From assembly GCF_044324785.1 (NCBI RefSeq), contig NZ_CP172127.1: a stretch of DNA of 64,000 bases. One strand, written 5' to 3'. The notes under the pieces are model-generated. The model made no database searches. It was given only the letters and a program-made list of their open reading frames with translations, and was not told the DNA's origin. A program made the position numbers and the translations under genes. Below, one piece after another: positions 569 through 24,926 of this stretch (positions are counted from its first letter, which is position 1; every line of letters begins with the position of its first letter). The DNA is from Escherichia coli (GTDB lineage Bacteria > Pseudomonadota > Gammaproteobacteria > Enterobacterales > Enterobacteriaceae).

Positions 569-589
569 TAATTGATATTCCTTTTGGTT

Positions 590-625: not shown

Positions 626-653
626 CAGTGGAATGAAGTCTGGTGAGTAAGAC

Positions 654-851: not shown

Positions 852-867
852 GTTGTGAATTTACGGG

Positions 868-1736: not shown

Positions 1737-1812
1737 ACTGAAGGTTTTCCTGATATGCAGAGATGAAAAATGGAAAAGTGGCGTGGTGAAAGCACCAGGC
1801 CGGAGCAGAAGG

Positions 1813-2193: not shown

Positions 2194-2203
2194 GATAAAA
2201 TCC

Positions 2204-2887: not shown

Positions 2888-2905
2888 CAGAGTGCCCTTA
2901 CTGAC

Positions 2906-3127: not shown

Positions 3128-3189
3128 AGTGTGATACCTCTGAAGACAGAAGATAAAAGTGCAAACAAGCGTGATGTGGTTGTGACGGG

Positions 3190-3666: not shown

Positions 3667-3681
3667 TGTCCCTGCCTCCAT

Positions 3682-4167: not shown

Positions 4168-4258
4168 GAGATTATTCCTTATAAAAAGTAAATGAATGGA
4201 AGAAATCCCGGGGGAAGGGACAGACGTGAGTCAGAACTGCGCTTTCAGGGAAACGGCA

Positions 4259-5077
4259 TCAGCGCATACTCTCCAGCAGCGTTTCAGCCATCACCCACAA
4301 TGCGCGGTTGAGCTTAATGTCGGTGTCGATGCTGTGAATGGCACGGGTATGGATACGTTTTCCTCTGGCACTGCGACCGGAAATCCCGCCTTTCAGCATA
4401 TTCTCCTGAATGGTCTGATAAGCACTCCACAGGTCCTTACCGTAATCCTCCCGGCGTCGTGGCGTCAGAATGTCGGCGGTGGTGACGGGCCGATGTTCGT
4501 CACCATAACGGTAAGTCAGTGCCGCCTGTGCCAGCGCCTGGCGTGCCGGTGGCGGCAGAATCAGCGACTGCATGGCATCACGCTTTTCCTCAATCCGGTC
4601 AAAAACCCCCACCACCTCGTAAGCCCCTTCAATAACTTTCTCCACCACATTTCCCCGGTGCGGAACACGCACTTCCCCCAGAGACTGACCACAGACGCAT
4701 CCGTTCTGACAGACGAACCTGAAGTAACCCGGCAGCATCTGGTAGCTGGAGGTACCGTCATGGGAGTTGAGCAGAATGATTTCAGGGACATGTTCTCCGT
4801 TTATCTCTCCGGCCCGCCGCAGACGCAGCATATGTTTTGTGTATCCCCGGCGGCCCGGGTCGCGCACACGGGTCTGGCAGGCGAAGAATGGCTGAAAGCC
4901 TTCCCGCTGCAGGCTTTCCAGTACGGTGATGGTGGGAATGTACGCATATCGTTTACTGCGGGAAGTATGCCGGTCTTCACCGAAAATACTGGGAACATAG
5001 TGCATCAGTTCTTCGTGTGTCAGCGGACGGTCACGGCGTATCTGGTTCGTATAACCAAAACGACTGGCTAGTCGCAT
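4259..5077 (-). CDS. DUF932 protein (YfjQ/YafZ family), 272 aa
   Basis: MRLASRFGYTNQIRRDRPLTHEELMHYVPSIFGEDRHTSRSKRYAYIPTITVLESLQREGFQPFFACQ... matches YfjQ/YafZ from memory. Confidence 0.75.
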   Translation of the reverse strand: MRLASRFGYTNQIRRDRPLTHEELMHYVPSIFGEDRHTSRSKRYAYIPTITVLESLQREGFQPFFACQTRVRDPGRRGYTKHMLRLRRAGEINGEHVPEIILLNSHDGTSSYQMLPGYFRFVCQNGCVCGQSLGEVRVPHRGNVVEKVIEGAYEVVGVFDRIEEKRDAMQSLILPPPARQALAQAALTYRYGDEHRPVTTADILTPRRREDYGKDLWSAYQTIQENMLKGGISGRSARGKRIHTRAIHSIDTDIKLNRALWVMAETLLESMR

Positions 5078-5403
5078 AATTTGCTCCTTATGAATGAGTT
5101 AGCGGTATAAATGAAAAAGCCGCGTCTCCCGGAGAAGACACGGCCTGACAGATGAAATGAATGACGTTTATTGTCTGAGAAGCCCTTCACTGGCGAGCTG
5201 CGTATTTTTATGGAAGGAGATCACCCAATAACCCCATCGGGATCGGGTAATAACCGGCCAGACTGTGATCGATTCAGATGCCATTTGGCAGCAAAAGAGC
5301 CTTCGGCAATAAACGTGATGTACAACCCGGCATATCTGTTACTCCCTGAAAGTAAAAGGCCCCGGTCATTATGACCGGGGCCTGAAGGGGAGTGACCTGA
5401 TTA

Positions 5404-8250
5404 TCAGAAAGTCACATTCAGCGTGGCCTGACCGTTATAGCCTTCGGCGCTGCTGCCGCTGACGCTGTGGGCATAACCGGCCTGAACGCCCAGGGTGATA
5501 TTTTCCCGGACACGGGCTTCCAGTCCGGCCTGCAGGTCCAGTGACGTGCCATTCTGGGACGGTGAGAACGTCATGTTACTGCCGGCGGCGGCTGTCCCCA
5601 TGCTCATGTCACCCCGGGAACTGAAGGTGCGGATAACAGAAGGCTGTACCCACCAGTTCACCGGCAGTTCACGCACACGGTGTTTTGCACTGTCGCGCAG
5701 GGTGTCACGGGATGAGGTGCCTTCACCAAAGCTCATATCGTTGTGGCTGCCCAGACGGAAGCCGGCACGCATATGTTGTGCACTGCCATGCCCGAACTTC
5801 ACATAACCGGCGTTATCCTGGCCGTCATCCAGGGAAAGTCCCTGCCAGGTGTACTGCAGTTGTGGTTCCAGCATCAGGTTGTCAGTGATACTGAAGGGCA
5901 GACCGGTTTCCAGTGAGCCCAGCCAGCCCCAGCCCCGGGCGCGGAAGTCGTTATTGTCCGATGACGCTTTCATGCTGTGGCGGGTTCCCTGTGCCATAAT
6001 GTCAGCCCACAGGCCGGAGGACGTGTGTACCAGATTCAGGTATCCGCCCAGGCTGCCGGCATCATCCCGGACCGTGCCGGCGCGGGAGCCGTCATCATCC
6101 TTAACATCAACGGAAGAATGGCCAGCAGCACTATATACCCCCGCGGTCACAGACATACCGGCAACCTCTGTTCTCAGCAGGTCACTCTCCAGACGGACGA
6201 AGCCATAGCTGCCGCTGCTTTCCGGCGTGGCCCCACGGGCAATACCGCCGTTGTTATCGTGACCGAGATGACCGCCCTGAATGCTGAGACGGACGCTGTT
6301 ATTTTCACCGTTTACACCGGTCTGATGGCTGCGGGAGCCTGCCAGAATCCGGTCATAGTCCATTGCCTGTGTCAGCATGGAGGCATACAGGGGGACTTCA
6401 GCACGATAAGCATTTTCACTGCGCAGGTACCAGTCTTCATCGCTGTCACGGTTCAGGGTGTAGTTAAAGGCACCGGCCTGAAGCGGGCGACTCAGGGCAA
6501 ACGCACCTTCTTCTGTGGTGGCACCATTCTGTGCATCCACAACCCGGATACCCTGTCCGGAAGTTGCCACCCCGAGGTTACTGTTTCCGACATTTGTGAA
6601 CGCAAGCCAGGTTTTGCCGGTTGCCTGACCACCATTAATCACCAGCTGGTCAGAGGCATTGCTGCCATCAAGGCGAACACGCATATTGATGGTGCCACCC
6701 TGACCGGTGAGGTTACTGGTGGTCAGTTTATGGAACGTTACCGGGGCGTCGCCTTTTGCAACAGCACGGCTCAGGACGGCATCCTGTGTCGTCTGATTAT
6801 CAAAGCGAATCTCCCCTGCGTTAACAATATCGCCGGTACTGACCACATCACCATTCAGTACCATGCTGGCGCCTTTACTGAGCTGTGTTCTGCCACTCAG
6901 ACTTCCCCCGGCAGCCAGCGTCAGTGTTCCACGATGTCCGACAGTGGTGTTGCCAGCCTGTCCCCCGGCATTAACCGTAAAGCTGCCGCCATTTTCCAGC
7001 AGCAGGCCGCTGGCCTGACCGGATATGCCATCAATACTGAACTTACCGCTGGCATTGGTCCCCTCAACAGTGGCACCACTGTCTGCAATCAGGGCACCAC
7101 CGGATGTCATGGTGACACCTGTCGCCTTACCACCGGCAGACACTGCCAGGGTACCGCCGTCATCCACCCGTGTTTTCTGCGCTGAATGACCCTCCAGTAC
7201 ATCCAGACGACCGCCGGACTCCAGAACAACACCGTCAGCCTTACCGTTTTCCACCGCGAAATTGCCCAGACGGTTGCTGCCGGTGACGGTTGCCGCCGTA
7301 CTGGTGACCAGTGCGCCTCCCTGCTTCAGGGTGACATTCGTGGCTGTACCACCGGCGTTCACCTGCAGTTTGCCTTTCTGGTTAACGGTGGTGAAATCCG
7401 CCAGACCACCTTCCTTGATAATCTGCCAGCCGTCACTGTTCACAACAGTGTCAGACGTTGTACCGCCGTTGTGTACATACTGGTTACCGCCATTCAGCGT
7501 GGTATCCAGTGCGTGGCCATGTACCGTCTGGTCGCCGCCGGCATAAACCACAGTGGTATTTGCTGTTCCTTCAACAGTCACAATCTGACGACCATTTTTA
7601 TTGATGGTGGTACGTACGGCATTTCCGCGAACAAACTGCCCGGTATCACCATTTTCTGCATCCGGTCCTCCTTCTGCGCCGGTATTCACAACGGTGTCTG
7701 TTGCCACTGCGCCGGGTTTGACGACCTGCCAGCCCTTATCATTAATGACGGTTCCTGTGGCTATCGCACCTTCATGCATCCACTGCTCGCCACCATTCAG
7801 CGTGGTGTTCAGTGCCAGTCCCTTCAGGCTTTGTCCGCCTCCTTCATTGATTATTGTGTCTGTAGCCTTTCCCCCGGCACCTACAAACTGGAGCCCGCCG
7901 CTGCTGATGGTGGTATTACTGGCTGTGCCGCCATCCTGTACCCATTGCCCGCCGGTATTGGCCTCGTTATCCGTCCCATACTCCAGCCCGGTACTGATGG
8001 TCATTCCGTTGGTCGTACCGAAGACAATCTGGTTGTCATGATTTGTCAGTGTTCCGCCGTTCACGGTTTCTCCCGCCTCTACAACCGTGTCAGCAGCCAG
8101 TGCCGGGACTGGCGTGACAGCAGCAAGAGACAGCGCAACCGCCACACCGGCGCGTTTTCCCCGTGAGCGGGCCAGTTCGGAAGCCACCACCAGGGTGCCC
8201 GTAATGTGATTCCATACCAGCCTGTAGCTGGTGTTCAGATGTCGTTTCAT
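5404..8250 (-). CDS. flu: Antigen 43-type self-associating autotransporter adhesin (948 aa from the MKRHLNTSYRLVWNH start)
   Basis: Extended signal peptide MKRHLNTSYRLVWNHITGTLVVASELARSRGKRAG. Gly/Thr/Asn-rich beta-helical repeats. C-terminal barrel ends ...GQATLNVTF. The track ORF begins 25 codons upstream, at 8325. Confidence 0.88.
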   Translation of the reverse strand: MKRHLNTSYRLVWNHITGTLVVASELARSRGKRAGVAVALSLAAVTPVPALAADTVVEAGETVNGGTLTNHDNQIVFGTTNGMTISTGLEYGTDNEANTGGQWVQDGGTASNTTISSGGLQFVGAGGKATDTIINEGGGQSLKGLALNTTLNGGEQWMHEGAIATGTVINDKGWQVVKPGAVATDTVVNTGAEGGPDAENGDTGQFVRGNAVRTTINKNGRQIVTVEGTANTTVVYAGGDQTVHGHALDTTLNGGNQYVHNGGTTSDTVVNSDGWQIIKEGGLADFTTVNQKGKLQVNAGGTATNVTLKQGGALVTSTAATVTGSNRLGNFAVENGKADGVVLESGGRLDVLEGHSAQKTRVDDGGTLAVSAGGKATGVTMTSGGALIADSGATVEGTNASGKFSIDGISGQASGLLLENGGSFTVNAGGQAGNTTVGHRGTLTLAAGGSLSGRTQLSKGASMVLNGDVVSTGDIVNAGEIRFDNQTTQDAVLSRAVAKGDAPVTFHKLTTSNLTGQGGTINMRVRLDGSNASDQLVINGGQATGKTWLAFTNVGNSNLGVATSGQGIRVVDAQNGATTEEGAFALSRPLQAGAFNYTLNRDSDEDWYLRSENAYRAEVPLYASMLTQAMDYDRILAGSRSHQTGVNGENNSVRLSIQGGHLGHDNNGGIARGATPESSGSYGFVRLESDLLRTEVAGMSVTAGVYSAAGHSSVDVKDDDGSRAGTVRDDAGSLGGYLNLVHTSSGLWADIMAQGTRHSMKASSDNNDFRARGWGWLGSLETGLPFSITDNLMLEPQLQYTWQGLSLDDGQDNAGYVKFGHGSAQHMRAGFRLGSHNDMSFGEGTSSRDTLRDSAKHRVRELPVNWWVQPSVIRTFSSRGDMSMGTAAAGSNMTFSPSQNGTSLDLQAGLEARVRENITLGVQAGYAHSVSGSSAEGYNGQATLNVTF

Positions 8251-8467
8251 CAGCTTTTCCTTACAGAGGGTGAATAAAAAAGCCGGTACCCACAAATGTG
8301 GATACCGGCAGGTACAAAACAGCATGGTCAGATAAAGTGGTTTTTCCCGGACATAAATGCTTCCCCTCTCTCATCCGCCAGAGAAGTATCAGTCCGTTGT
8401 GTGCAATTCCGTTCTGCATGATGAAGAGATTCAGCTGCCTTTTCGCAGACCATTAACCACCATAAAC

Positions 8468-8503
8468 GATCGATGACAACGATCGATACCTGTTTTATCG
8501 ATC
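8468..8503 (-). promoter_or_regulatory. agn43-type Dam/OxyR phase-variation switch (three clustered GATC sites)
   Basis: GATC at 8468-8471, 8481-8484 and 8500-8503, within cgatcgatgacaacgatcgatacctgttttatcgatcg. About 220-250 nt upstream of the flu start. Confidence 0.65.
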
Positions 8504-8621
8504 GTTTTATTCTATTAACAGCAAGGCAGTCACGCAAGAGAAAGAGGTGGGTATGAGGTGTTTGTATCATGTTTTCAGTTGGTTAACGCAATGTAATCAG
8601 GCATTTCCCCTGGCAGAATGT

Positions 8622-9494
8622 TCAGAAGAAAATCCAGTTCCATACAGCGCGGGCAACAGAGACCACCGTGTCACGGACGACACGCAGAACCGTACGAGCC
8701 ACAGAGGCAACACAGACGCTCTCCGCCGTGTCAAATATCCGGTCCACCGCACCGGTAAACTGTTCACGGGCCTGCCCCCGGACAGATTCCGTGCACAGCT
8801 CGTCCTGCAGGCGGGTCATCAGGGGACTGGCGGCATGGTCGGGAAGTGCTGTCATGAGCGCACTGACCAGCGTATCCAGTTCCCAGCCGGTGCGGGCCGA
8901 TACGGCCACAACCGGATGTACGGGCCGGAACAGACGGAATACCGCCTCCGTTTTTTCGCGAATGTTCTGTGCCTGTGCGGGAGAAGGCTGAATACCGGCC
9001 ATATCCCATTCATGGCAGGGCTCCGTTTTATCGGCCTGCGTCACCACAAACAGCACCTGCTGATGTCCCCGGTGCAGGATGTGTCGCCAGAAATACTCAT
9101 CCACAGACAGGGCACGGTCATCGGCTTTAATCAGCCACAGTACCAGGTCAAGTTCAGGCAGAATGTCACGGTACAGGGCTTCATACTCTGCATCCCTGTC
9201 CCGGCTCTCGCCCACCCCGGGCAGGTCAGTGATAACCATGCTGTGACCGTGGCCACTCAGACGGAAGCGCCGCACTTCCCGGGTGCCGGCGTGAACATCA
9301 CTGACCGGGGTGACCTCCCCCTGAAACAGTGCATTACAGAGTGAGGATTTACCGGCCCCGCTTTTCCCCATAATGCCAATCACGGGTTCGTGACTGGTGA
9401 GTTTACGCAGATGTTCCAGGATGTGACGGGAAAGTGAGTAAGGCAGGGAAGAAAGTGGTTTTTCAATTGCCTCAATGGCATCAGACGGATTCAT
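8622..9494 (-). CDS. YeeP/YfjP/YkfA-family GTPase (290 aa from MNPSDAIEA)
   Basis: P-loop GKSGAGKSS, DLPG switch motif, CP4-type synteny upstream of Ag43. The track ORF starts 13 codons earlier, at 9533. Confidence 0.75.
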   Translation of the reverse strand: MNPSDAIEAIEKPLSSLPYSLSRHILEHLRKLTSHEPVIGIMGKSGAGKSSLCNALFQGEVTPVSDVHAGTREVRRFRLSGHGHSMVITDLPGVGESRDRDAEYEALYRDILPELDLVLWLIKADDRALSVDEYFWRHILHRGHQQVLFVVTQADKTEPCHEWDMAGIQPSPAQAQNIREKTEAVFRLFRPVHPVVAVSARTGWELDTLVSALMTALPDHAASPLMTRLQDELCTESVRGQAREQFTGAVDRIFDTAESVCVASVARTVLRVVRDTVVSVARAVWNWIFF

Positions 9495-9757
9495 ACATGT
9501 ATTCCCGGTGAAAAAAGACAAAACCCCGCGCACCGGAAAGGTGGCGGGGGATTCACGGAGATAATATCTGTCTGAAATTATTTAGAATGCACCTGGTGCA
9601 CTGCAAAGGAAAGGCAATATTCCGTTCCTCCTCCTTGTCGTGAATACCCCAGGTATCTCACAATGTACACCGACTTACTCCGGGGCTGCCTGAACCACAA
9701 GATTGCTGTAGAATTGCCCCCAATGATTCAGGTCCAAACCAGGAAAATGGATTAAAA

Positions 9758-11167
9758 ATGACAAGTATTCAACAACGAGCAGAACTGCACCGCCAGATAT
9801 GGCAAATTGCCAATGATGTCAGAGGTTCTGTTGACGGATGGGATTTTAAGCAATACGTTCTGGGCGCGCTTTTCTACCGTTTTATCAGCGAAAATTTTTC
9901 CAGCTATATTGAAGCCGGTGATGACAGTATCTGTTATGCGAAACTGGATGACAGCGTAATTACTGATGACATTAAAGACGATGCCATCAAAACTAAAGGC
10001 TACTTCATCTACCCAAGTCAGCTTTTCTGCAACGTAGCTGCGAAAGCAAATACCAATGACAGACTGAATGCAGATTTAAACAGTATCTTCGTTGCTATCG
10101 AAAGTTCTGCTTACGGTTACCCTTCAGAAGCTGACATCAAAGGTTTGTTTGCTGATTTCGATACCACCAGTAACCGCCTGGGTAACACCGTTAAGGATAA
10201 AAATGCCCGCCTGGCTGCGGTTCTGAAAGGGGTTGAAGGGTTAAAACTTGGTGACTTCAACGAACATCAGATTGACCTGTTCGGCGATGCCTATGAGTTC
10301 CTGATTTCTAACTATGCGGCGAATGCTGGTAAGTCAGGCGGCGAGTTTTTTACACCGCAGCATGTCTCTAAGCTGATTGCACAACTGGCTATGCACGGGC
10401 AGACCCACGTTAACAAAATCTACGACCCAGCCGCAGGTTCCGGTTCGCTGTTGTTACAGGCGAAAAAGCAGTTTGATGACCATATCATCGAAGAAGGCTT
10501 TTTTGGTCAGGAGATCAACCATACGACCTATAACCTGGCGCGTATGAACATGTTTTTGCACAACATCAACTACGACAAGTTTGATATCAAGCTGGGCAAT
10601 ACGCTGACTGAGCCGCACTTCAGAGATGAAAAACCGTTTGATGCCATCGTTTCTAACCCGCCGTATTCAGTGAAATGGATTGGCAGCGATGACCCGACGC
10701 TGATTAACGATGAGCGTTTTGCCCCGGCTGGCGTCCTGGCCCCCAAATCAAAAGCTGACTTCGCGTTTGTATTACATGCGCTGAACTATCTTTCGGCCAA
10801 AGGTCGCGCCGCGATTGTCTGCTTCCCGGGTATTTTTTACCGTGGCGGCGCAGAGCAGAAAATCCGTCAGTATCTGGTCGATAATAACTATGTCGAAACC
10901 GTGATTTCACTGGCACCGAACCTGTTCTTTGGCACCACCATTGCCGTAAACATTCTGGTGCTGTCTAAACATAAAACGGATACCAAAGTTCAGTTTATTG
11001 ACGCCAGCGAACTGTTCAAAAAAGAGACTAACAACAATATCCTGACCGATGCCCATATCGAACAGATTATGCAGGTATTTGCCAGCAAGGAAGATGTTGC
11101 TCATCTGGCGAAATCTGTTGCGTTTGAGACTGTTGTCGCGAATGACTATAACGGCTTTGTTGAATAA
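9758..11167 (+). pseudogene. hsdM: Type I restriction-modification methyltransferase HsdM, 3'-truncated by IS903 (last 5 codons and stop come from the IS)
   Basis: HsdM N-terminal domain ([35 protein letters not shown]), AdoMet motif [11 protein letters not shown], catalytic NPPYS. The reading frame enters the IS903 inverted repeat at 11153 (...NDYN|GFVE*). No hsdS or hsdR follows. Confidence 0.8.
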
Positions 11168-12209
11168 ATCAGATTTCGGGTAAGTCTCCCCCGTAGCGGG
11201 TTGTGTTTTCAGGCAATACGCACGCTTTCAGGCATACCTGCTTTCGTCATTTTGTTCAGCGCTCGTACCAGGGCCATAGCCTCCGCAACCTGACCATCGT
11301 AGTCACGCAGCGTCAGTGAACCCCCGAACAGCTGTTTTACCCGGTACATCGCCGTTTCCGCTATCGAGCGACGGTTGTAATCTGTTGTCCATTTCCACCG
11401 CGCATTACTCCCGGTCATTCGCTGATTAGCCACTGCACGGTTACGGTCTGCATATTCACCGGGCCAGTAACCCGCACCTTTTCGGGGAGGGATAAGCGCG
11501 CTGATTTTCTTACGCCGCAGTTCATCGTGACATAGCCGGGTATCGTAAGCGCCATCGGCGGCGGCTGACCTGATTTTCCGGTGGGTTTGCCGGATTAACC
11601 CGGGGAAGGCCTCTGAGTCCGTAACGTTGTTCAGCGACAGGTCAGCGCAGATGATTTCATGTGTTTTACTGTCAACGGCGAGATGCAGCTTACGCCAGAT
11701 ACGGCGGCGTTCCTGGCCATGCTTTTTGACTTTCCACTCGCCTTCACCGAAGACCTTCAGCCCGGTGGAATCAATTACCAGGTGTGCGATTTCACCCCGG
11801 GTGGGCGTTTTGAAACTGACATTAACCGACTTTGCCCGCCTGCTGACACAGCTGTAATCCGGGCAGCGTAGCGGAACGTTCATCAGAGAAAAAATGGAAT
11901 CAATAAAGCCCTGCGCAGCCCGCAGGGTCAGCCTGAATACGCGTTTAATGACCAGCACAGTAGTGATGGCAAGGTCAGAATAGCGCTGAGGTCTGCCTCG
12001 TGAAGAAGGTGTTGCTGACTCATACCAGGCCTGAATAGCTTCATCATCCAGCCAGAAAGTTATGGAGCCACGGTTGATGAGGGCTTTATTGTAGGTGGGC
12101 CAGTTGGTGATTTTGAACTTTTGCTTTGCCACGGAACGGTCTGCGTTGTCGGGAAGATACGTGATCTGATCCTTCAACTCAGCAAAAGTTCGATTTATTC
12201 AACAAAGCC
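11153..12209 (-). mobile_element. IS903 (IS5 family), complete 1057-bp copy with no flanking target duplication
   Basis: Terminal inverted repeats ggctttgttgaataaatc at 11153 and gatttattcaacaaagcc ending at 12209. Flanking 9-mers differ (gactataac vs gttacccgc). Confidence 0.9.
11209..12132 (-). CDS. IS903 transposase (307 aa from the VAKQKFKITNW start; track ORF extends to 12177)
   Basis: ...AKQKFKITNWPTYNKALINRGSITFWLDDEAIQAWYESATPSSRGRPQRYSD... matches the IS903 transposase as I recall it. Confidence 0.9.
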   Translation of the reverse strand: MAKQKFKITNWPTYNKALINRGSITFWLDDEAIQAWYESATPSSRGRPQRYSDLAITTVLVIKRVFRLTLRAAQGFIDSIFSLMNVPLRCPDYSCVSRRAKSVNVSFKTPTRGEIAHLVIDSTGLKVFGEGEWKVKKHGQERRRIWRKLHLAVDSKTHEIICADLSLNNVTDSEAFPGLIRQTHRKIRSAAADGAYDTRLCHDELRRKKISALIPPRKGAGYWPGEYADRNRAVANQRMTGSNARWKWTTDYNRRSIAETAMYRVKQLFGGSLTLRDYDGQVAEAMALVRALNKMTKAGMPESVRIA

Positions 12210-13339
12210 GTTACCCGCTCTTCAATCTCATGCAATTGATTATGCAATATCGCATTTTCATCCTTTTGCCCGGCTAATGAGTGGGTAAGCGTCTCAACTT
12301 CTTGCTGTAATGCGGAGCTCCTGGCCTGGAAAAACTCAAGTTCCTTCAGAACCCGATCTTTAAGAGAGAATAGGTACTCTTCAGCTGACAGCGTGGTGAT
12401 CCTATGATGGGCGGCGGCGATAAATTCATCATAAAAATCATCACTCTTTGCATCCAGGGCAACAACAAACTCTTTCACTTGCTGATAAAACGGGTGAAAT
12501 GCCGGACCAGAAATCGTGTTTAAATGCCACTCAAGGAACACGACAACATAGTTTTTATAATCTCTGAGACGGTGTTCCATCATCCCCTGCTGACAGATAA
12601 ACGCTTTAAGCGCCACCAATGCTTCAACAGCACAGCGGTGCGACTCTGCTCGCGTGGCGGATAGGGATTCACTACGGTTGATGGTATGAGAAATTAACGT
12701 TTCATTTAAGACCGAAATTCTGTTCGCCATGAGCATAAATGCGCAGACGAAGAAAAGATCGTTGGTCGTCCTGATTTCCTGAAAGCGAAGCTGATGACTA
12801 GTAATAAATTGACGCCTGAGAAGCTTGTCCCATGGCCACCAGACAAAGGTGCGGAAAAAGTCAGAGGGAATATCCTGGGATGAAAAAAACTTGAGATCAG
12901 GTAACAGCTCCTGGCGCACTGACCACGGCATCGGAGCATAAACCTGCAAGGCGGGATCAAAAGACTGGCTGCGACAGATAACGACATCCGCTTGTATATC
13001 GCTAGCACGTGCGTACATGCGCTCCAACATCATGTTATCGACATAATCGTCGTCATCAAGAAAAATAACGTACTCACCGGTAGCAGCATCCAACCCGATG
13101 TTTCTTGAGCCTCCCCCACCAAGATTTGTCGTGTTGTTAATGACTCTAATTCGTGAATCAGTTTCAGCCAGCGCCGAGACAATCTCTAAGGTATTATCGT
13201 CAGAACAATCGTTGACAATAATGATTTCAATATCATTTAATGTTTGCGACAAAACAGTGCTCAATGTGTCGGAAATATATCCCGCCGCATTGTGCACAGG
13301 GATAATAACGGAAACAGCTATACTCTCTTTTTCAGACAT
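12179..13339 (-). CDS. Family-2 glycosyltransferase with C-terminal coiled coil (KfoC-like position after wbbO); extreme 3' end replaced by IS903 sequence
   Basis: GT2 N-terminus VSVIIPVHNAAGYISDTLSTVLSQTLNDIEIIIVNDCSDDNT and a DDD motif (FLDDDDY). The last ~9 codons (ALLNKSNFC*) read out of the IS903 inverted repeat at 12209. Confidence 0.7.
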   Translation of the reverse strand: MSEKESIAVSVIIPVHNAAGYISDTLSTVLSQTLNDIEIIIVNDCSDDNTLEIVSALAETDSRIRVINNTTNLGGGGSRNIGLDAATGEYVIFLDDDDYVDNMMLERMYARASDIQADVVICRSQSFDPALQVYAPMPWSVRQELLPDLKFFSSQDIPSDFFRTFVWWPWDKLLRRQFITSHQLRFQEIRTTNDLFFVCAFMLMANRISVLNETLISHTINRSESLSATRAESHRCAVEALVALKAFICQQGMMEHRLRDYKNYVVVFLEWHLNTISGPAFHPFYQQVKEFVVALDAKSDDFYDEFIAAAHHRITTLSAEEYLFSLKDRVLKELEFFQARSSALQQEVETLTHSLAGQKDENAILHNQLHEIEERVTALLNKSNFC

Positions 13340-13460
13340 GCAATCACCTTGACGCTTAGCTTATAAACGTAATTATATTTATTTATGGGTAGCGTTTAAT
13401 TTGTAGGTTGCCAGTTTATTAAGGATGGGTAAGATGAAAGCGACTGAGCTTCATCAAAAA

Positions 13461-14594
13461 TTACTCTTCAACAACATCACGATATGTTTTTAATGTTTTA
13501 TTAATGATCATCACACTCGAGAATTTATCTTGAATGCGTTTTCTGCCATTGATACCCATTGCGACGCGCGTTTCTGGGTTATCCAACAGGAAACCGAGTT
13601 TCTCCGCTAATTCCTCGACAGATTTACTTTTTACAATCAACCCATTATAGTTATTGATAATTAAGCTATCACAGCCACCAACATCATAAGCGATACAAGC
13701 GCGCCCGACAGAGGAAGCTTCCAGCAAGATACGCGGTACGCCTTCGGCGTAGACCGACGGCAAAGCAACGATATTTGATTCTTCAATTAAATCAAATACA
13801 TTAGAGCAATGACCGAGCCAGTTAATCACGCCTTCGCTTTGCCACTTCTGTATCGTCGCCAGCGGAATTGCGTCTTTATCATTCTCAACTAAAATACCGG
13901 CAACATTCAGCGTAAAGTGAATATTTTTATTACTCAGTATTTTTTTGGCTTCAATCAGGTCACCCAGTCCTTTACTCCACAGCATACGGCTGGCAAAAAG
14001 GACGACCGGAACATCACGCTGCTGCTCCAGAGAGTATTTGTAAATCTCTGGATTAATACCCGCGCCATCAATAACAATAGTCTGTTTGTAATCGATACCA
14101 ACCAGATCGGCAAGTTTAGCTCTGTCTTTATCATGTTCGAACATAAACAAACTGCATTTGTTACTGGCGATATACTTATATGCCATAACAGTAAAACTTC
14201 GCAGCAGCTTAAGACAGGCAGACTCTGCGGAAAATACTCGGCCCAAACCGACAAAACTCAGAATAACAGGACGATGGGTACTTTTAGCCAGAAAACCGCC
14301 GATCAAACAGGGCTTGATGGTAATGCAGTGCAACAAATCTGGATTGATGTTTTGAATAATTTTCCGAGCCTTAGAAAAGGCCCGAAAGAAAATCAAAACG
14401 TTGAATGATTGGGCGACAAGTGGAATGTTATGGCAAACAAAACCTAATGTCCTGAATTTTTCCGCTATTTTATCATCGACAAAATGGCTAATAATGTGAA
14501 TCTCATAACCGGCATCTCGGGCGGCAATTGCACGATCGGTCCAATGCAAATCAAAATACCAATCCGAATTTATGAAATAACACAGTTTTTTCAT
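13461..14594 (-). CDS. wbbO: WbbO-like galactosyltransferase (GT4), 377 aa from MKKLCYFINSDWYF
   Basis: GT4 C-terminal EX7E-type region (EGVPRILLEASSVGRACIAYDVGGC). Size and position match Klebsiella rfb(O1/O2) WbbO from memory. The track ORF starts at a GTG at 14606. Confidence 0.75.
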   Translation of the reverse strand: MKKLCYFINSDWYFDLHWTDRAIAARDAGYEIHIISHFVDDKIAEKFRTLGFVCHNIPLVAQSFNVLIFFRAFSKARKIIQNINPDLLHCITIKPCLIGGFLAKSTHRPVILSFVGLGRVFSAESACLKLLRSFTVMAYKYIASNKCSLFMFEHDKDRAKLADLVGIDYKQTIVIDGAGINPEIYKYSLEQQRDVPVVLFASRMLWSKGLGDLIEAKKILSNKNIHFTLNVAGILVENDKDAIPLATIQKWQSEGVINWLGHCSNVFDLIEESNIVALPSVYAEGVPRILLEASSVGRACIAYDVGGCDSLIINNYNGLIVKSKSVEELAEKLGFLLDNPETRVAMGINGRKRIQDKFSSVMIINKTLKTYRDVVEE

Positions 14595-14606
14595 TGCTAT
14601 GTCCAC

Positions 14607-16666
<2,060 letters not shown>

Positions 16667-18559
16667 TTAGCCAAGAATCGAACGGCGAACTTTATAATAA
16701 TATTTGATGAGCTTATTTCTTCTTGGCGAACCGACAGGAGCATATTTGTTAACATATGGCATTAAAGCTCTTTTAATCTTTGTCTGCAGTAACACGGTTT
16801 GCTGCAGTTCAGTATGTTGGTTAGGTACTACCGTGGCCACAGGTAACTGGCGATAGTAGATTTCTTTCTCCCATGGCGTACTTAAAACATTCTCAAGAAA
16901 ATCATCATAGAAATCGACTTTCTCAGTATTCCATGGTTTGTTTTCACCCGCATAGTGAATCATTTTTGGATTTCTTCTGGCTTGCAAAAAGCGCATATAG
17001 GTTGAAAACTTGAGATTCGGGAAGAAATCATCGGTATTACCATTACCATGGTACACGTTCCATTCTAATGGTAAGAATTTGACTCGGCCAAAGAAGACTT
17101 TGTTCATGATATCCTGATCTAAGAACCAATACTTTTTGGCTTTCAATGCTGACATCAATTGAGCAAAGGTATTCTCTGTAACCATTTGTTCGACATTAAA
17201 AACAATAATCCCGGCCTGAAAATATTCGTCAGGATTAGTCATTCCTAATGTCTTTTTCAGGTATTGCTCTGCAGGCATAATGCCATCATCTGATTCTGAC
17301 ATGGTACCAAACTTCACAAACCCTTCCATGACGATGTCTTTAACAGCGGCAACCAGGTTAGTGCCGATCTCGACATCCAGAAGTGTCGCCAAATCAGCCT
17401 TCACCACGGTGTCAGAATCGATAAACACAACTTTTTTATACTCGCGGAAAAGTTGCGGGATGAACAAGCGCGCATAGGTCGACGCACTAAAATGTGCACG
17501 GGTATGAACATCACTCATCTCAGTGAATGAATTCACATCAAAAAAGCGCAATGATATGTTGTTATGACCAGCAACTAGCTTGATAAGGCGTTGTTTATTT
17601 AAATGACTGACCTTATTTTCCAGAACAACGATATCATAGTTTCTGCTCGCATCAGAATGGAGAACAATTGAATTGATTAATGCCCCGCCACTTAATGCAT
17701 AGTTATTATCAAAACTAATAACAACCGGTACGCTTTCGTCAAAAACGGGCTTTAATTTACCATTAAATGTTTCAGCAGTAACAAACGTGCGCTGTAGTTC
17801 TTTTATTTTTAGCTGTTTATCTTGTTGACATTTGATGATATAGATATTGAATAAACGCTCAGCAATGTGTCCTATAACTCGTTTTTCTTGAGCGTTGTAG
17901 TTATTCATCGAAATCCGATCTTCAAGATTAGACAAAATAGCAAAAAGCCATTCAGAATAATCCAGGAACATGTCTTTGCGCATAACAAACATGTTCGTAT
18001 AATAACCATCAGTTGCATTATTGAATTGTTGAATCGCAGCTTTATATTGTGGATACAGCTCTTCAACGACATCCAGGGCAGACTGATAGTCTTTAATGTG
18101 TAAAAACTCACCTTTTGCATAATGATCAAGGTTATTCTTACTTCCTGCCGATGTTACCGACCATTTTTTGGGTAACAGCAGATCATATCCATCGACGCAG
18201 GTGCTTATGGATTCATCACTTAATCCAAACTGGCTTTCGTATTCGGCATTGATGAGCGGGTAGTTGACTACCCCCCAGTTATCCTCAGGATGATTTTGTT
18301 GTTCTGCAAAGTTCAAGTGTCTGCGGTAATGCATGAATCCCACATAGTCAGCCAGAGATTCATTCTTCCACACCCAGTAGTGGGCCGTCAGCTCACAATA
18401 GAAGGGGTTTTTAAAGGAAATGTTGTCTCCGCTATCATCCCCTTCACAGCCAATATCATTATAAGTATTAGCCTTCCCGACATGCAGTGGTTTAATAATA
18501 GAGGCATTTAGAAAAGCACTGGGTTTGTGGTGACATGTATAAATTTTGATACTATTCAT
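16667..18559 (-). CDS. wbbM: WbbM-like bifunctional galactosyltransferase (N-terminal DUF4422-like domain plus C-terminal GT8), 630 aa
   Basis: GT8 motifs FIDSDTVV (DxD) and HYAGENKPW in the C-terminal half. Size and order as in the Klebsiella D-galactan I cluster. Confidence 0.78.
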   Translation of the reverse strand: MNSIKIYTCHHKPSAFLNASIIKPLHVGKANTYNDIGCEGDDSGDNISFKNPFYCELTAHYWVWKNESLADYVGFMHYRRHLNFAEQQNHPEDNWGVVNYPLINAEYESQFGLSDESISTCVDGYDLLLPKKWSVTSAGSKNNLDHYAKGEFLHIKDYQSALDVVEELYPQYKAAIQQFNNATDGYYTNMFVMRKDMFLDYSEWLFAILSNLEDRISMNNYNAQEKRVIGHIAERLFNIYIIKCQQDKQLKIKELQRTFVTAETFNGKLKPVFDESVPVVISFDNNYALSGGALINSIVLHSDASRNYDIVVLENKVSHLNKQRLIKLVAGHNNISLRFFDVNSFTEMSDVHTRAHFSASTYARLFIPQLFREYKKVVFIDSDTVVKADLATLLDVEIGTNLVAAVKDIVMEGFVKFGTMSESDDGIMPAEQYLKKTLGMTNPDEYFQAGIIVFNVEQMVTENTFAQLMSALKAKKYWFLDQDIMNKVFFGRVKFLPLEWNVYHGNGNTDDFFPNLKFSTYMRFLQARRNPKMIHYAGENKPWNTEKVDFYDDFLENVLSTPWEKEIYYRQLPVATVVPNQHTELQQTVLLQTKIKRALMPYVNKYAPVGSPRRNKLIKYYYKVRRSILG

Positions 18560-18573
18560 CTTATTACCAATTA

Positions 18574-19314
18574 TTAAGCCATTGCTTGCTTGTAAAGTTC
18601 AATGATTCTCTCTGCTGAGCCAATTTCGCGGAGTTTATGGTTTTCGATCCAAACAACTCTGTCACAGATTTTTTCAACATCACTCATATTGTGGCTAACG
18701 AATAATATCGTTACACCCTTATTTTTGAAGTCTCGTATTGTTTGTATACATTTGGCCTGGAACGAAATGTCACCGACAGCAAGTACCTCATCGATAATAA
18801 GTATATCGGGTTCTACCTGGCTGATGACAGAGAATCCAAGCTTCGCAAGCATACCACTTGAGTACACGCGAATAGGTTCGTCAATGAAATCACCCAGCTC
18901 GGAGAACTCAATTATCCGATCCATCCGTTGCTGAACCTCTTTGCGGCGTAGCCCAAGCAGGGTCGCATTGAGATAAATATTTTCTCGCCCGGTTAATTCA
19001 GGGTGAAAACCGCCGCCTAGCTCAAGCATTGAGGCAACGCGTCCCTGGGTTGTAACAGTGCCTTTTGTAGGCTTAATGACGCCGGCCACCAGCCCGAGGG
19101 AGGTACTTTTCCCTGCGCCGTTACGACCAATCAGCGCTACGGCCTCGCCTTTACCCACGGTGAAGGTAATGTCTTCGATCGCAAGATATTTACGCCCTTT
19201 TAACAGCTGAAAAGCTCTTTTAGGGTGAAATACGAGATCCTTAATTCCTGAGCCAATATGGTGGTAAAGAGGATACTCTTTCGTAACGTGACTAAAGTTT
19301 ATTACTGGTTCCAT
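18574..19314 (-). CDS. wzt: O-polysaccharide ABC transporter ATP-binding protein Wzt (246 aa, no C-terminal carbohydrate-binding domain)
   Basis: Walker A GRNGAGKST, signature YSSGMLAKLGF, Walker B ILIIDEVLAVGD. Start overlaps the wzm stop at 19314. Confidence 0.88.
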   Translation of the reverse strand: MEPVINFSHVTKEYPLYHHIGSGIKDLVFHPKRAFQLLKGRKYLAIEDITFTVGKGEAVALIGRNGAGKSTSLGLVAGVIKPTKGTVTTQGRVASMLELGGGFHPELTGRENIYLNATLLGLRRKEVQQRMDRIIEFSELGDFIDEPIRVYSSGMLAKLGFSVISQVEPDILIIDEVLAVGDISFQAKCIQTIRDFKNKGVTILFVSHNMSDVEKICDRVVWIENHKLREIGSAERIIELYKQAMA

Positions 19315-20093
19315 TACAAAATCTCTGCAAATCGATATTTTAATTTATTAAAAATACTCAGGCCCACAATTGTCAGGACTAAACCTGTAATGTAAAGGAT
19401 TGAAATATATTCATAATTTAAGACGCCATCCATGAACAGCTGCCGCCAGCTGAGGATCATGCTTGCCAGAGGATTATAGGTAATAATCCAGCTAAATTTT
19501 TCAGGAATCATATCTGACGCATATAATATCGGCGTGCAATAAAACATGAGCATGATACCAAGGCTGACAAATCGCTCTAAATCCCTGAAGAACAGATTTA
19601 GCGTAGAAAATATGATTGAAATACCAAATGTAAAAATCACCTGACCAAGCGCAATAATTGGTACGCCCCAGAGCCATGAGAGCGATGGACGCATACCATA
19701 CACGAACAGGAATGCAATAATCACAGGAATTGTACACAAGAAATGTACCCCTTCCATCATGACATTACTCAATGGAATAACTGAGCGCGGAAAAACTGTT
19801 TTTTTGATTATTTGCGCATTGGCTATAAACGAAAACAAGGAATTTGTCGCCGAGCTGGCAAACCATTGCCACGGAAATAAACCGGTAATCAAGAAAAGGG
19901 TATAATTCGGGATCTGCACTCGCATAACGAGCTTAAAAATGAAATAATATATCATTGCAAAAAGCAGTGGATTCGCAATTGACCATAAGTAACCAAATAC
20001 GCTGCTTTTATAACGTACCTTTAAATCTTTGTTTGTTATAACAACAAGAAGATCAAACAAATACCCTATATTATACTTCATTTTTATACTCAT
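19314..20093 (-). CDS. wzm: O-polysaccharide ABC-2 transporter permease Wzm (259 aa)
   Basis: Multi-pass hydrophobic ABC-2 type protein (...DLKVRYKSSVFGYLWSIANPLLFAMIYYFIF...). First gene of the cassette. Confidence 0.88.
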   Translation of the reverse strand: MSIKMKYNIGYLFDLLVVITNKDLKVRYKSSVFGYLWSIANPLLFAMIYYFIFKLVMRVQIPNYTLFLITGLFPWQWFASSATNSLFSFIANAQIIKKTVFPRSVIPLSNVMMEGVHFLCTIPVIIAFLFVYGMRPSLSWLWGVPIIALGQVIFTFGISIIFSTLNLFFRDLERFVSLGIMLMFYCTPILYASDMIPEKFSWIITYNPLASMILSWRQLFMDGVLNYEYISILYITGLVLTIVGLSIFNKLKYRFAEIL

Positions 20094-20390
20094 AAATTAT
20101 TCTACAAAAAATTCCGTACGTAATATGTATCAAACAGAATTATCGATAAGATCTGCTGTGCTCGAGAGACGAACAGCTATTCCCATAAACAAAGACCAAT
20201 TGTAACATCATTTTGCACAAGCAATATGTAAACAATCTTTCCTGCGCATTAGCACTCCGGAATCGGAGATGATCGCTAACCTCAGTAACCGCTGAATGAA
20301 AATGTGATTCTCGTGGAAGATACATAAACCATCCTTTAAGATTGTAAATAAAATGTTAAATCGAACAATGAGTTTATTCTAAAATTCAGA

Positions 20391-20402
20391 CACGCTACCG
20401 CC
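20391..20402 (-). promoter_or_regulatory. ops element (RfaH recruitment site) within a JUMPstart-type leader of the wzm operon
   Basis: The plus strand reads cacgctaccgcc, whose reverse complement is GGCGGTAGCGTG, the canonical ops 12-mer. It is on the coding strand of the cassette, ~300 nt upstream of the wzm ATG. Confidence 0.8.
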
Positions 20403-21021
20403 ATTGGCTATCGCAACCAAAATGCGGACTCCCCTCTCTAAAGTGTCTGTCTTACCCGGTCTTACCGTAACGAAGAGGATACGCTCGTCGTTAGCTCCAC
20501 AAGCATTACCGGCGCAGCATTCATGAAGCCACAAACAGCCTAGTCAGCGTTCGGCAAAAAAGCTAAAAACAAACGGATATCTGTACTCAGCGCCCCTCTC
20601 CGGACTCACATCCATCGCTACACCGCAACAAATGCACCGCTACTTTCCCCAGTTTATGGCATCCTATCCATCAGGACTTTCTCATTTCACCCTTGAAACC
20701 AACAAAAAGCGTCACTCTCGGCAGTATGACTTCAACAGCCATGTAGCTGGGCGCTCCGCATCTCTACATGAGTCAGGCAGAGTATTAAGTTCGCGGGCAG
20801 GCAGCGGCAACACCACCAGGATAACGTACTTCCTCATCCTATCTTGCATAAAAGTGAATTTGACTTTTCTTCAAAAGTGGTCAAATCCGAGCGTCGTAGG
20901 GTACGTTTGCTGCGCATTATCAATAATGCATCCGTAGGACGTGAATTACGCGCGCATTATAGCTCTGGTCTGGAAGAATAAAAATGAAAAAGCATGACCA
21001 ATCCATCCAGCCAAAAAATAC

Positions 21022-21454
<433 letters not shown>

Positions 21455-21621
21455 TGTAAGCGTCGTCTGAGTACCGTCTGGTCCCGAATCCAGGATCCTG
21501 TAACTTAAGCACCCACTTATTTTGCAGGTGGACACCTCATGCGCACCAAAGAACGACTCCCCCGGAAACGCTATTCTCCTGAATTTAAAATGGAACTGGT
21601 CAGGCTGGCCCTTGAACAAGA

Positions 21622-23384
21622 TGTCACGAACGGTGCAATAGTGGTTCTTCCGCAACTTGGGTGGAAGAAAATGGATGAAACTTTCTGGTGAACAAGGATC
21701 TAAGCTGTTTTAAGTTATGGGCAACGCAATGCACTCTCTTAAGACACTTCTACAGTTACCTTGCGGATGGCGATGCAGTCGACAAATTATTAGCTCTGAC
21801 GGTATCACCCTCCATCTCCACGGAAAACGCAAAACAGCACAATGTCCTGAATGCTCTAAGCGTAGCGACTCTGTTCATAGTTCTCGTCGGCGCCGGATAC
21901 AGCATCTACCCTGCTCCGGGCAGACGCTATGGCTTGTATTTTCCGTCCGCCACTGGTACTGCCGTAACCCTGTTTGTTCACGAAAAATTTTTGCCGAGTC
22001 GCTTGCTCCCTTCGCCGGTTCACACCAGCAGTCTTCACAGGCGTTACAAAATTTACAACGTCAACTGGGATTAATAGCCGGAGGTGAGGCTGGAAAACGG
22101 GCTGCAACGGCAGTGGGTCTCCGTTGCAGTGCAGATACTCTTCTTCGCAGGGTTATCAATACCCCGGGGACGAAACAGTCAGGCGCGCCTCATGTCGGTA
22201 TTGATGAGTGGGCGTGGCATCGGGGCCACCGTTACGGTAAGTTAATCGTCAATCTTGATACTCACCGTCCCCTCGTCCTGCTTCCCGGTCGTGATCAGCG
22301 TACGCTGGCGACCTGGTTCAGAAAATATCCGGAAATACAGGTTGTCTCGCGTGATCGCAGTGGAGTCTATGCAACAGCAGCACGTGAAGGTGCACCTCAG
22401 GCCAGACAGGTGGCCGATCGATGGCACCTGCTAAAAAATATTGGCGATGCGCTTGAACGAATGATGTACAGACATATACCTCTGATACGTCTTGTTGCCA
22501 GTGAGTTGTCACTAAAGAAATCACCTGAGCCAGAACTGTCTGTGCCTGCAGTATCGCTCCGTCGTCCGGAACGCCTTAAACAGCAAACCCGCAAAAAACG
22601 GCATCAGCGTTGGACAGAGGTTATGGCCCTGCATAACAAGGGATGTAGTTTCAGGGAAATATCCCGTATTACAGGCCTGTCGCGTGTGACAGTCAGTCGC
22701 TGGGTGCGTTCAGGAACATTCCCTGAAATGTCAACCCGACCTCCAAAGCGAGGGCTTCTGGACCCATGGAGGGAGTGGTTAAAAGAGCAACGAGAAAGCG
22801 GTAATTATAACGCCAGCCGGATATGGCGGGAAATGGTGGCCCGGGGGTTTACAGGCAGTGAAACCATCGTCAGGGATGCTGTTGCCAAATGGCGTAAAGG
22901 CTGGATCCCACCGGTTACTACTGCCGCCAGACTTCCTTCAGTGTCCCGGGTAAGCCGGTGGTTGATGCCCTGGAGAATAATCAGGGGGGAAGAAAATTAT
23001 GCTTCCCGATTTATTAGTCTGATGTGTGAAAAAGAACCGGAGCTGAAAATAGCGCAGCAACTGGTACTCGAGTTCTACCGTATTCTGAAAACCCAAAATA
23101 AATCACAGCTTAGCAGCTGGTTCACTCGAGTCCACGAAAGCGGCTCAGCAGAACTTCGGCGCGTGGCTGCGGGGATGGAAGCTGATGCTGCGGCTATATG
23201 TGAGGCAATCAGCAGTCGCTGGAGTAATGGTGTTGTCGAAGGTCATGTAAATCGCCTGAAGATGTTGAAACGCCAGATGTATGGTCGAGCCGGATTTGAA
23301 CTGCTCAGGCAGAGGGTCATGAGTCCACTGGCATGAAAATCTCCACCCAAGTTGCGGAAGAACCACTTTTCATCCGTCGTTGAC
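21622..23384 (+). mobile_element. ISL3-family insertion sequence nested in IS66 tnpA, flanked by a 6-bp direct repeat ACAAGA
   Basis: 25-bp perfect inverted repeat gtggttcttccgcaacttgggtgga (21641-21665 and the complement of 23342-23366), with imperfect extension outward to ~21622 and ~23384. ACAAGA at 21616-21621 and 23385-23390. Removing the element restores cttgaacaagagggcagt (LEQEGS) in tnpA. Confidence 0.8.
21717..23336 (+). CDS. ISL3-family transposase (539 aa)
   Basis: N-terminal zinc-finger CPECSKRSDSVHSSRRRRIQHLPCSGQTLWLVFSVRHWYCRNPVC and a DDE region (...IDEWAWHRGHRYGKLIVNLDTHRPLVLLPGRDQRTLATWF...) typical of the ISL3 family. Confidence 0.85.
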   Translation: MGNAMHSLKTLLQLPCGWRCSRQIISSDGITLHLHGKRKTAQCPECSKRSDSVHSSRRRRIQHLPCSGQTLWLVFSVRHWYCRNPVCSRKIFAESLAPFAGSHQQSSQALQNLQRQLGLIAGGEAGKRAATAVGLRCSADTLLRRVINTPGTKQSGAPHVGIDEWAWHRGHRYGKLIVNLDTHRPLVLLPGRDQRTLATWFRKYPEIQVVSRDRSGVYATAAREGAPQARQVADRWHLLKNIGDALERMMYRHIPLIRLVASELSLKKSPEPELSVPAVSLRRPERLKQQTRKKRHQRWTEVMALHNKGCSFREISRITGLSRVTVSRWVRSGTFPEMSTRPPKRGLLDPWREWLKEQRESGNYNASRIWREMVARGFTGSETIVRDAVAKWRKGWIPPVTTAARLPSVSRVSRWLMPWRIIRGEENYASRFISLMCEKEPELKIAQQLVLEFYRILKTQNKSQLSSWFTRVHESGSAELRRVAAGMEADAAAICEAISSRWSNGVVEGHVNRLKMLKRQMYGRAGFELLRQRVMSPLA

Positions 23385-23691: not shown

Positions 23692-24057
23692 ATGATAAAT
23701 CTTCCCGCAGGCACAAAAATCTGGCTGGTTGCCGGTATCACCGATATGCGCAACGGCTTCAATGGTCTCGCCGCAAAGGTGCAGACAGCGTTGAAAGATG
23801 ACCCGATGTCCGGCCACGTCTTCATCTTCCGGGGCCGCAGCGGCAGTCAGGTCAAACTGCTGTGGTCCACCGGCGACGGACTGTGCCTGCTGACCAAAAG
23901 GCTGGAGCGTGGCCGCTTCGCCTGGCCGTCGACCCGCGATGGCAAAGTGTTCCTGATGCCGGCGCAGCTGGCGATGCTGATGGAAGGTATCGACTGGCGA
24001 CAGCCAAAGCGGTTACTGACGTCCCTGACATGTTGTAGCCCAGGTCTTCTTCGTTGA
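23692..24057 (+). pseudogene. IS66-family TnpB, near full length, with a chimeric C-terminal tail across the deletion junction
   Basis: MINLPAGTKIWLVAGITDMRNGFNGLAAKVQTALKDDPMSGHVFIFRGRSGSQVKLLWSTGDGLCLLTKRLERGRFAWP... is a classic IS66 Orf2. The last 8 residues (CCSPGLLR) read into antisense of the neighbouring gene. Confidence 0.75.
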
Positions 24058-24926
24058 TAAAGTTCACATCCAGAGGATGGATACTTCCTGTAGCCCGTAA
24101 TATCGTCGATTCAATATCCTGCACATTCATCGGGATCACCGATGCAAGAAAAGCCCATTGATCAGAATAAGGCTGGAAATTAATATCAACAAAAACGCTT
24201 CCCCCCGATGCACGCGGTCTTTTTTGCAGAGGTAACGCGATAAGATTACCAAATCCTCCTTTTGGCATAGTATCCTGATTAGGAAATAATCGGTCATAAG
24301 AACTCAATTGCAGCTGTCGGGTCCGGCTGCACGTATAGCTAATAATAGCAGTCCCCAGACGGCGAGCTTCGCGGGCCGAAACTCGTGAAGCAAAAAATAT
24401 CCAGACATGCGCTCCCTGACGTGAGCGGGATATTTCCAGCGCAGCAGGTACACTCAGCTCATCACAGGCTCGCATGAACGCGGATGCATCCTTCTGCCAT
24501 TCAGCTTTATCAAAATCAACAGCCAGAAAATAACAGGAATCATCTTCCAGCAACGGATATAACCCGGCAGTATGCGTGCCTGCCAGATGCTGGTAGATGA
24601 CAAGATCAGATACAGGGAGTAACTGACGGTGCGTACAGTCCCCGCATTTTATCCGGGGTTTACCGCATATTCTCGCCTGCCATTCGTTAGCGCAGGCAGG
24701 AGAGTACCCTGATTTGCCGCTGGTTTTACTTTCCCAACGAAGGGCCCATATATCATCACGCCCACGAAACAACCGACGAAATAATGCAACCTTCTCGTCG
24801 GTGGATAATACGGAAACGCGCTGCACAGGGCTCGGCGGTTTACGTCGCCATTCCAAGTAATGAGACCAGACGGGCATTTTCTGCCCTCAATGCAGCTAAT
24901 TCATCGCTGTCAGATTTATGAACCAT
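24033..24926 (-). pseudogene. Remnant of a large primase-polymerase (AEP)-domain protein, probably originally fused to a helicase; 5' frameshift and 3' truncation
   Basis: AEP motifs FLAVDFDKAEW (DxD) and RQGAHVWIFF. The upstream ATG at 24926 gives MVHKSDSDELAALRAENARLVSLL, then a +1 shift (an extra g in cttGgaatgg) into ORF 23852-24877 (EWRRKPPSP...). Homology ends at ...INEEDLGYN (~24033), where antisense IS66 tnpB begins. Confidence 0.6.

Follow-up and report, generated by a model that had tools for sequence, protein, structure and literature searches.

A Klebsiella O2a-type rfb operon of probable Raoultella origin in the serW-clpA island of Escherichia coli

An O-polysaccharide gene cassette was analyzed in a 64,000-nucleotide (nt) stretch of Escherichia coli DNA (contig NZ_CP172127.1 of assembly GCF_044324785.1). 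This whole stretch is called the window here, and coordinates are window positions unless another locus is named. The open reading frame (ORF) map showed seven co-oriented genes on the minus strand from 12179 to 20093, in the order wzm-wzt-wbbM-glf-wbbN-wbbO, followed by a seventh gene for a GT2 glycosyltransferase. An earlier reading of the bare letters, the sequence-only reading, had picked out these genes as a Klebsiella-type D-galactan I cassette. The gene sizes and domains it gave agreed with the ORF map and with Pfam and NCBIfam searches, and both of the start/stop overlaps it listed are present (1 nt at 19314 and 4 nt at 15494-15497). It had also named missed frameshifts as a possible weakness, and none was seen in the six essential genes. 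The cassette is AT-rich, as had been noticed, with a GC content of 41.7% compared to 49-51% in the flanks, both elsewhere in the island and in the core genome.

The first two genes encode the exporter. The product of wzm (19314-20093) is the ABC-2 permease (PF01061) and has 259 residues, or 255 from the start at 20081 used in RefSeq; it is 92% identical to K. pneumoniae RfbA/Wzm and 99.6% identical to the protein of Raoultella ornithinolytica. The product of wzt (18574-19314) is an ABC ATPase (PF00005) of 246 residues, which aligns end to end with the 246-residue K. pneumoniae RfbB/Wzt (95% identity) and is 100% identical to the R. ornithinolytica protein. It has no C-terminal carbohydrate-binding domain, ABC_tran being the sole domain in the Pfam scan. 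The NCBIfam "galactan export ABC" models NF050108 and NF050109 were tried as well, but they scored 184 bits (cut-off 400) and 56 bits (cut-off 380), far under their cut-offs, and were not used.

The next four genes encode the synthetic enzymes. The product of wbbM (16667-18559) is a two-domain galactan polymerase of 630 residues, with DUF4422 (PF14393) at residues 5-243 and GT8 (PF01501) at residues 279-545. It matched the solved structure of the "WbbM protein" (PDB 6U4B) over residues 2-576 with 1082 bits (E = 0), and is 77% identical to the K. pneumoniae protein and 99.4% identical to that of R. ornithinolytica. The UDP-galactopyranose mutase encoded by glf (15494-16648; 384 residues) scored 321 bits with TIGR00031, against a cut-off of 303.75, and is 85% identical to K. 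pneumoniae RfbD/Glf. A GT2 glycosyltransferase of 296 residues is encoded by wbbN (14607-15497; PF00535), with 65% identity to the product of the syntenic K. pneumoniae gene and 99.3% to that of R. ornithinolytica. Finally, wbbO (13461-14606; PF00534/PF13477) encodes a GT4 glycosyltransferase of 381 residues from a GTG start or 377 from the first ATG (14594), with 79% identity to K. pneumoniae and 99.7% to R. ornithinolytica. The K. pneumoniae identities of WbbM, WbbN and WbbO are all far above 40%, the limit under which the sequence-only reading would have favored a different polymer.

The seventh gene (12179-13339; PF00535), called kfoC in Kaptive, is truncated. Its ORF has 386 residues, of which residues 1-377 are native (12210-13339), and the final nine residues and the stop codon are supplied by the insertion sequence (IS) IS903. 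The sequence-only reading was right that IS903 had cut this gene, but the loss is not confined to the extreme C-terminus: measured against the 434-residue Raoultella protein, 57 residues (13%) are gone. The protein is 54% identical to the K. pneumoniae homologue, and 376 of its 377 native residues are identical in a plasmid copy of the cassette described below. kfoC is not counted among the "mandatory" wzm-wbbO genes (PMC7556023).

The genes of the cassette have one-to-one syntenic matches in the his-linked rfb O1/O2 locus of K. pneumoniae strain 176 and ATCC 13883, so the Klebsiella gene order given in the sequence-only reading, and with it the assignment to a D-galactan I-type operon dependent on an ABC transporter, was borne out. 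Gene order and domain architecture are the same as in the K. pneumoniae O1/O2 variant 1 locus (rfb-2a, which includes kfoC). The window has the wzm-wbbO gene set in the order of that locus, a WbbM polymerase with DUF4422 (GT111) N-terminal to GT8, a Wzt without the carbohydrate-binding module (in which export is uncoupled from a terminal cap), and its own UDP-galactopyranose mutase. The two loci differ in sequence, the proteins being 54-95% identical and the nucleotides only 72-76%, and in the truncation of the seventh gene by IS903. They also differ in position. Klebsiella and Raoultella carry the locus next to the his operon, whereas the window has it in an island between serW and clpA; this departure is one of location and not of function. 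In the strain 176 record (CP125156.1, a 5.37-Mb chromosome filed as "plasmid unnamed2"), wbbM itself appears disrupted, with only a 533-residue ORF and no CDS listed at 9200-11110 of the compared locus.

A search for the donor, in which one genome per bacterial species was scanned, led to NBRC 105727, the R. ornithinolytica type strain. Its chromosomal locus is 99.3% identical in nucleotides across the whole 8812-bp block at 12210-21021, and its proteins are 99.3-100% identical to those of the window. R. planticola ATCC 33531 has 95.2% nucleotide identity over the same block. K. pneumoniae was ruled out as the direct donor, since its nucleotide identity of 72-76% is far from the 99.3% of R. 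ornithinolytica; the direct source was therefore R. ornithinolytica-like. In Raoultella, the operon is flanked by ugd/epimerase-like ORFs and the his operon, which is the native position of an O-antigen locus (these flanking ORFs were assigned from the K. pneumoniae locus, which is annotated and colinear). The native Raoultella rfb is effectively the same operon as the cassette, but there it has 1366 nt upstream, an untruncated seventh gene and an additional ORF. On this sequence comparison, the cassette belongs to the Klebsiella O2a rfb family and is of the Raoultella type within it. The sequence-only reading thus had the family right and the donor wrong. A literature search for Raoultella together with galactan I did not find the Raoultella origin of the operon described.

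The leader upstream of wzm (20094-21021, minus strand) keeps 928 nt of the donor's 1366-nt intergenic region, Raoultella homology ending at 21021. It contains the ops 12-mer GGCGGTAGCGTG at 20391-20402, on the coding strand of the cassette and 298 nt upstream of wzm. This is the single exact match in the 64 kb, where 0.03 would be expected by chance, and it agrees with the perfect 12-mer about 300 nt upstream of wzm in the sequence-only reading. The 12-mer is the end of a JUMPstart element at 20391-20427 (minus strand), to which the Rfam model RF01707 aligned over its full length (1-38) with 25.6 bits (E = 0.004; gathering score 35). A 36-nt block, CGCATTTTGGTTGCGATAGCCAATGGCGGTAGCGTG, recurs without change in the rfb leader of K. 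pneumoniae, although the leader around it is barely alignable. We take the block and the RF01707 match together to mean that the JUMPstart/ops element is probably genuine, and established knowledge of such elements suggests that it would be RfaH dependent. A 46-nt JUMPstart/ops segment (20381-20426) is also 93-98% identical to unannotated stretches in many plasmids of 36-116 kb in E. coli, Enterobacter and Citrobacter, and this segment probably accounts for most of about 250 partial matches in E. coli chromosomes.

The cassette is bounded by the two elements that the sequence-only reading had named. One is a complete IS903B of 1057 bp (11153-12209, minus strand), identified by an IS5-family transposase match of 357 bits and by terminal repeats GGCTTTGTTGAATAAATC that were read directly; the corresponding element in E. 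coli SMS-3-5 is annotated as IS903B in RefSeq. It truncates the seventh gene, and its 9-mer flanks differ from each other. The other is a degenerate remnant of IS911, of the IS3 family (21022-21455, minus strand), which abuts the leader. It is 98.2% identical to an annotated IS911 over 434 nt from the first base of that element and is a pseudogene in RefSeq. A composite transposon was ruled out, because the flanking elements are unlike and there is no target-site duplication. Therefore, the earlier description of an "IS-boxed" cassette does not hold in the sense of a transposon. The plasmid copy, with other insertion sequences and other end-points, also contradicts it.

The placement in a serW-clpA island, and not between galF and gnd, proved correct. 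No tRNA gene was found within the window by ARAGORN; in SMS-3-5, serW (tRNA-Ser) is found 424 nt ahead of the point where the window starts. The clpA-side end of the island is marked by ATCCCCCCCTCACCGCCA (32375-32392, plus strand), which directly repeats 18 nt from the 3' end of serW. This repeat is unique in the window and exactly matches the last 18 nt of the SMS-3-5 tRNA-Ser. A tyrosine integrase adjoins clpA at 30831-32039 (minus strand), as transferred from the SMS-3-5 annotation (38653-39861) through a 99.99% colinear alignment. The region thus has the insertion at a tRNA 3' end, the direct repeat and the tyrosine integrase of a tRNA-integrated island, and with the serW position these support its description as a serW island. 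The serW 3'-end motif occurs twice here, as 13 nt near 32200 and as the 18 nt at 32375-32392. The roughly 175 nt between the two copies are absent from SMS-3-5 and may have been left behind by a second element that targeted serW.

SMS-3-5 carries the same cassette and truncated leader, 100% identical, in the same island between serW and clpA; the junctions with IS903 and IS911 and the island backbone are shared as well. The window aligned with the SMS-3-5 locus in two blocks at 99.98-99.99% identity (1164-11152 with locus 1-9989, and 11153-32259 with locus 18975-40080). Between them, 8985 bp of SMS-3-5 (locus 9990-18974) are missing from the window, and the junction at 11152|11153 falls exactly at the outer end of IS903. 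This stretch holds the 3' end of hsdM and, in the 8.8 kb that follow, IS1, genes for a 740-residue glycosyltransferase and a pyruvyltransferase, and several IS elements and remnants, with IS256, ISKpn26 and IS3 among them. The window consequently retains only a truncated orphan hsdM (9758-11152, plus strand; TIGR00497). The two transferase genes are wbbY and wbbZ: EcSMS35_2255 and EcSMS35_2256 share 99% identity with WbbY and WbbZ of K. pneumoniae (Hsieh et al. 2014, PMC4237132), of which WbbY polymerizes D-galactan II and WbbZ is the terminal pyruvyltransferase (Kelly et al. 2023, PMC10629545). The deletion ends at the IS903 terminus and the 9-mers flanking the element differ, which is the signature of an IS-mediated adjacent deletion, and such an event probably caused the loss. 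Also, SMS-3-5 (2311000-2336000) is rearranged after aqpZ, where IS110 and then dusC-mgl-cirA genes follow, and this rearrangement is not in the window (from 42867), which therefore comes from a strain other than SMS-3-5.

The cassette was found in 52 of 5426 complete E. coli genomes from varied hosts. At least 35 of the 52 have 80% or more of window 1-25000 and therefore the same island. The exact hsdM'|IS903 junction of the window was not found as a single-piece match in any of the 5426 genomes. WCHEC050613 has an hsdM'-IS903-cassette arrangement with a different end-point, and CREC-2 has yet another. These distinct end-points, together with the presence of wbbYZ in 35 genomes compared to 52 for the cassette, indicate that the loss of wbbYZ is recurrent. 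Ten plasmids from Citrobacter, Enterobacter and E. coli also carry the cassette, at 99.5-99.8% identity. In the conjugative IncFII plasmid pSTW0522-27-3 of Citrobacter portucalensis, it extends 240 nt further upstream in the leader and 138 nt further into the seventh gene than in the window, and it is flanked by IS1 and ISKpn26. Beside it on that plasmid (1324-5449 of the compared locus) are gtrA/gtrB/gtrC-like (gml-like) O-antigen modification genes interspersed with ISEc68.

The sequence-only reading knew of no such cassette in a serW island, but its presence there is already known. SMS-3-5 was sequenced in 2008, and its genes, along with E. coli O19, were linked to the Klebsiella O1 antigen by Hsieh et al. 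(2014, PMC4237132). Complete rfb-2a clusters beside wbbYZ were then reported in these E. coli strains in PNAS (Kelly et al. 2023, PMC10629545). That study noted that these strains have a native rfb too, and proposed that the isolates may co-express two O antigens. Both papers discuss a second O antigen of E. coli that cross-reacts with Klebsiella. Table S2 of that study lists SMS-3-5, MRSN346647, CFSAN061769, THO-010, YD786, C21, EC21 and GD33, which are the genomes at the top of our own searches. Even the layout with the cassette alone exists in WCHEC050613. Given the identical copy in SMS-3-5, the same island annotated in at least 35 other genomes and this literature, the claim of novelty fails. 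A literature search for wbbM together with serW found nothing specific. Two small increments were not found stated in the literature: that the operon has a Raoultella-type source, and that wbbYZ has been lost repeatedly next to IS903.

Expression of the operon, the structure of its polymer and its ligation can be predicted by analogy with K. pneumoniae, whose rfb-2a locus on a plasmid gives the O2a antigen in E. coli DH5alpha (Kelly et al. 2023, PMC10629545). Host WecA would prime undecaprenyl phosphate with GlcNAc-1-P to form Und-PP-GlcNAc, and WbbO and WbbN would add the galactose adaptor. The GT8 and DUF4422 (GT111) domains of WbbM would then polymerize the [->3)-beta-D-Galf-(1->3)-alpha-D-Galp-(1->] repeat, for which Glf would provide UDP-Galf. 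Wzm and Wzt, the latter without a carbohydrate-binding domain, would export the chain, and host WaaL would ligate it to the lipid A-core. The ops site of the JUMPstart leader would recruit host RfaH, which would be expected to allow read-through of the operon of about 8 kb without premature termination. In the ancestral island, as in SMS-3-5, WbbY and WbbZ would cap this polymer with D-galactan II and pyruvate to give an O1-like antigen. Since wbbY and wbbZ are deleted from the window, its predicted product is O2a-like and not O1-like: an uncapped D-galactan I, made alongside or in competition with the antigen of the strain's own galF-gnd locus.

We therefore consider it likely that E. coli acquired the cassette laterally, as an rfb operon of Klebsiella O2a type for D-galactan I that is nearly unchanged from an R. 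ornithinolytica-like his-linked locus, that IS activity placed it in the serW island, and that its product is O2a-like. A wider proposal about the island's history is more tentative, and we put it at slightly less than an even chance. In this proposal, the island is a mosaic of two donors, an R. ornithinolytica rfb and a K. pneumoniae-type wbbYZ, in which recurrent IS903-adjacent deletions with at least three end-points switch an O1-like to an O2a-like antigen.

Several observations weigh against the O2a operon reading. The JUMPstart match scores under the Rfam gathering threshold, and the leader has been cut by IS911 to 928 of the donor's 1366 nt. A promoter scan of this leader gave 29 sites compared to 23 expected, which is not above chance. 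WbbN is only 65% identical to the characterized K. pneumoniae enzyme, and the seventh gene is truncated by IS903. Also, the native O locus, rfaH, wecA and waaL all lie outside the window.

The leader findings could mean that the cassette is silent cargo, intact but untranscribed, either because the promoter was lost with the IS911 cut or because H-NS silences AT-rich DNA. Its persistence would then reflect recent acquisition and not function. The leader does end at 21021, where the plasmid copies and the donor go on for 240 nt or more, and the promoter-like matches do not rise above chance. The low GC content of the block within its 49-51% context, and the many IS elements and pseudogenes that litter the island, would also fit with this reading. 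However, none of the six essential ORFs is disrupted, and they are 99.3-100% identical to their donor counterparts, an identical cassette is retained in the 52 genomes from varied hosts, and the JUMPstart/ops element is intact.

SMS-3-5 offers a further argument. D-galactan I is the base on which D-galactan II is made. Strain F8188-41, the O19ab reference for E. coli, carries wbbYZ, and D-galactan II was detected in it immunologically (Hsieh et al. 2014, PMC4237132). That paper reports SMS-3-5 as O19:H34, while its own locus was typed as O153 (Table S2 of Kelly et al. 2023, PMC10629545). Since D-galactan II needs D-galactan I, and SMS-3-5 is reported as O19 with an identical cassette and leader, we infer that the cassette is expressed from the same truncated leader in that strain. 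For these reasons, we regard silent cargo as unlikely.

It is very improbable that the operon is expressed but makes a polymer unlike classical D-galactan I, through diverged Raoultella-type transferases or the truncated seventh enzyme: WbbN, WbbM and the seventh protein are only 65%, 77% and 54% identical to their K. pneumoniae counterparts and the last is 57 residues short, but synteny and domain architecture are fully conserved, the seventh gene is outside the mandatory wzm-wbbO set (PMC7556023), D-galactan II, for which D-galactan I is the acceptor, was detected in E. coli O19, and these E. coli clusters were scored as complete rfb-2a (Kelly et al. 2023, PMC10629545).

If the cassette is expressed, a minority of E. 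coli, about 1% as counted in complete genomes, may display Klebsiella O1 or O2a epitopes that are not seen by in silico serotyping of galF-gnd. Strains with the island may carry an O2a- or O1-type antigen that such typing misses; in SMS-3-5, the reported serogroup is O19 and the locus type O153. Klebsiella O1 and O2 are vaccine and antibody targets, and cross-reactive E. coli matter for specificity and as a gut reservoir of the epitopes; such strains could be hit by, or absorb, the antibodies raised by Klebsiella O-antigen vaccines. The practical relevance is limited but real, and the Raoultella source and the loss of wbbYZ leave the known picture unchanged.

Three other features were recorded in the window. 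An ORF at 23852-24877 (minus strand) has an AEP-TOTE domain, the archaeo-eukaryotic primase of the TOTE conflict system (E = 5e-100), and is annotated as a truncated pseudogene in both SMS-3-5 and WCHEC050613. At 21717-23336 (plus strand) is an ISL3-family transposase of 539 residues, whose 370-position model match is interrupted by an IS21/HTH-like stretch (residues ~303-394), so it may be chimeric or bear an insertion. Lastly, a 600-residue ORF at 53796-55598 (minus strand) has a GC content of 31% and only weak pentapeptide-repeat matches. It is not known from K-12. Its neighbors are presumably amiD-like and ybjP-like core genes, judging from ORF sizes and the K-12 gene order, and the ORF looks like a small foreign insertion between them.

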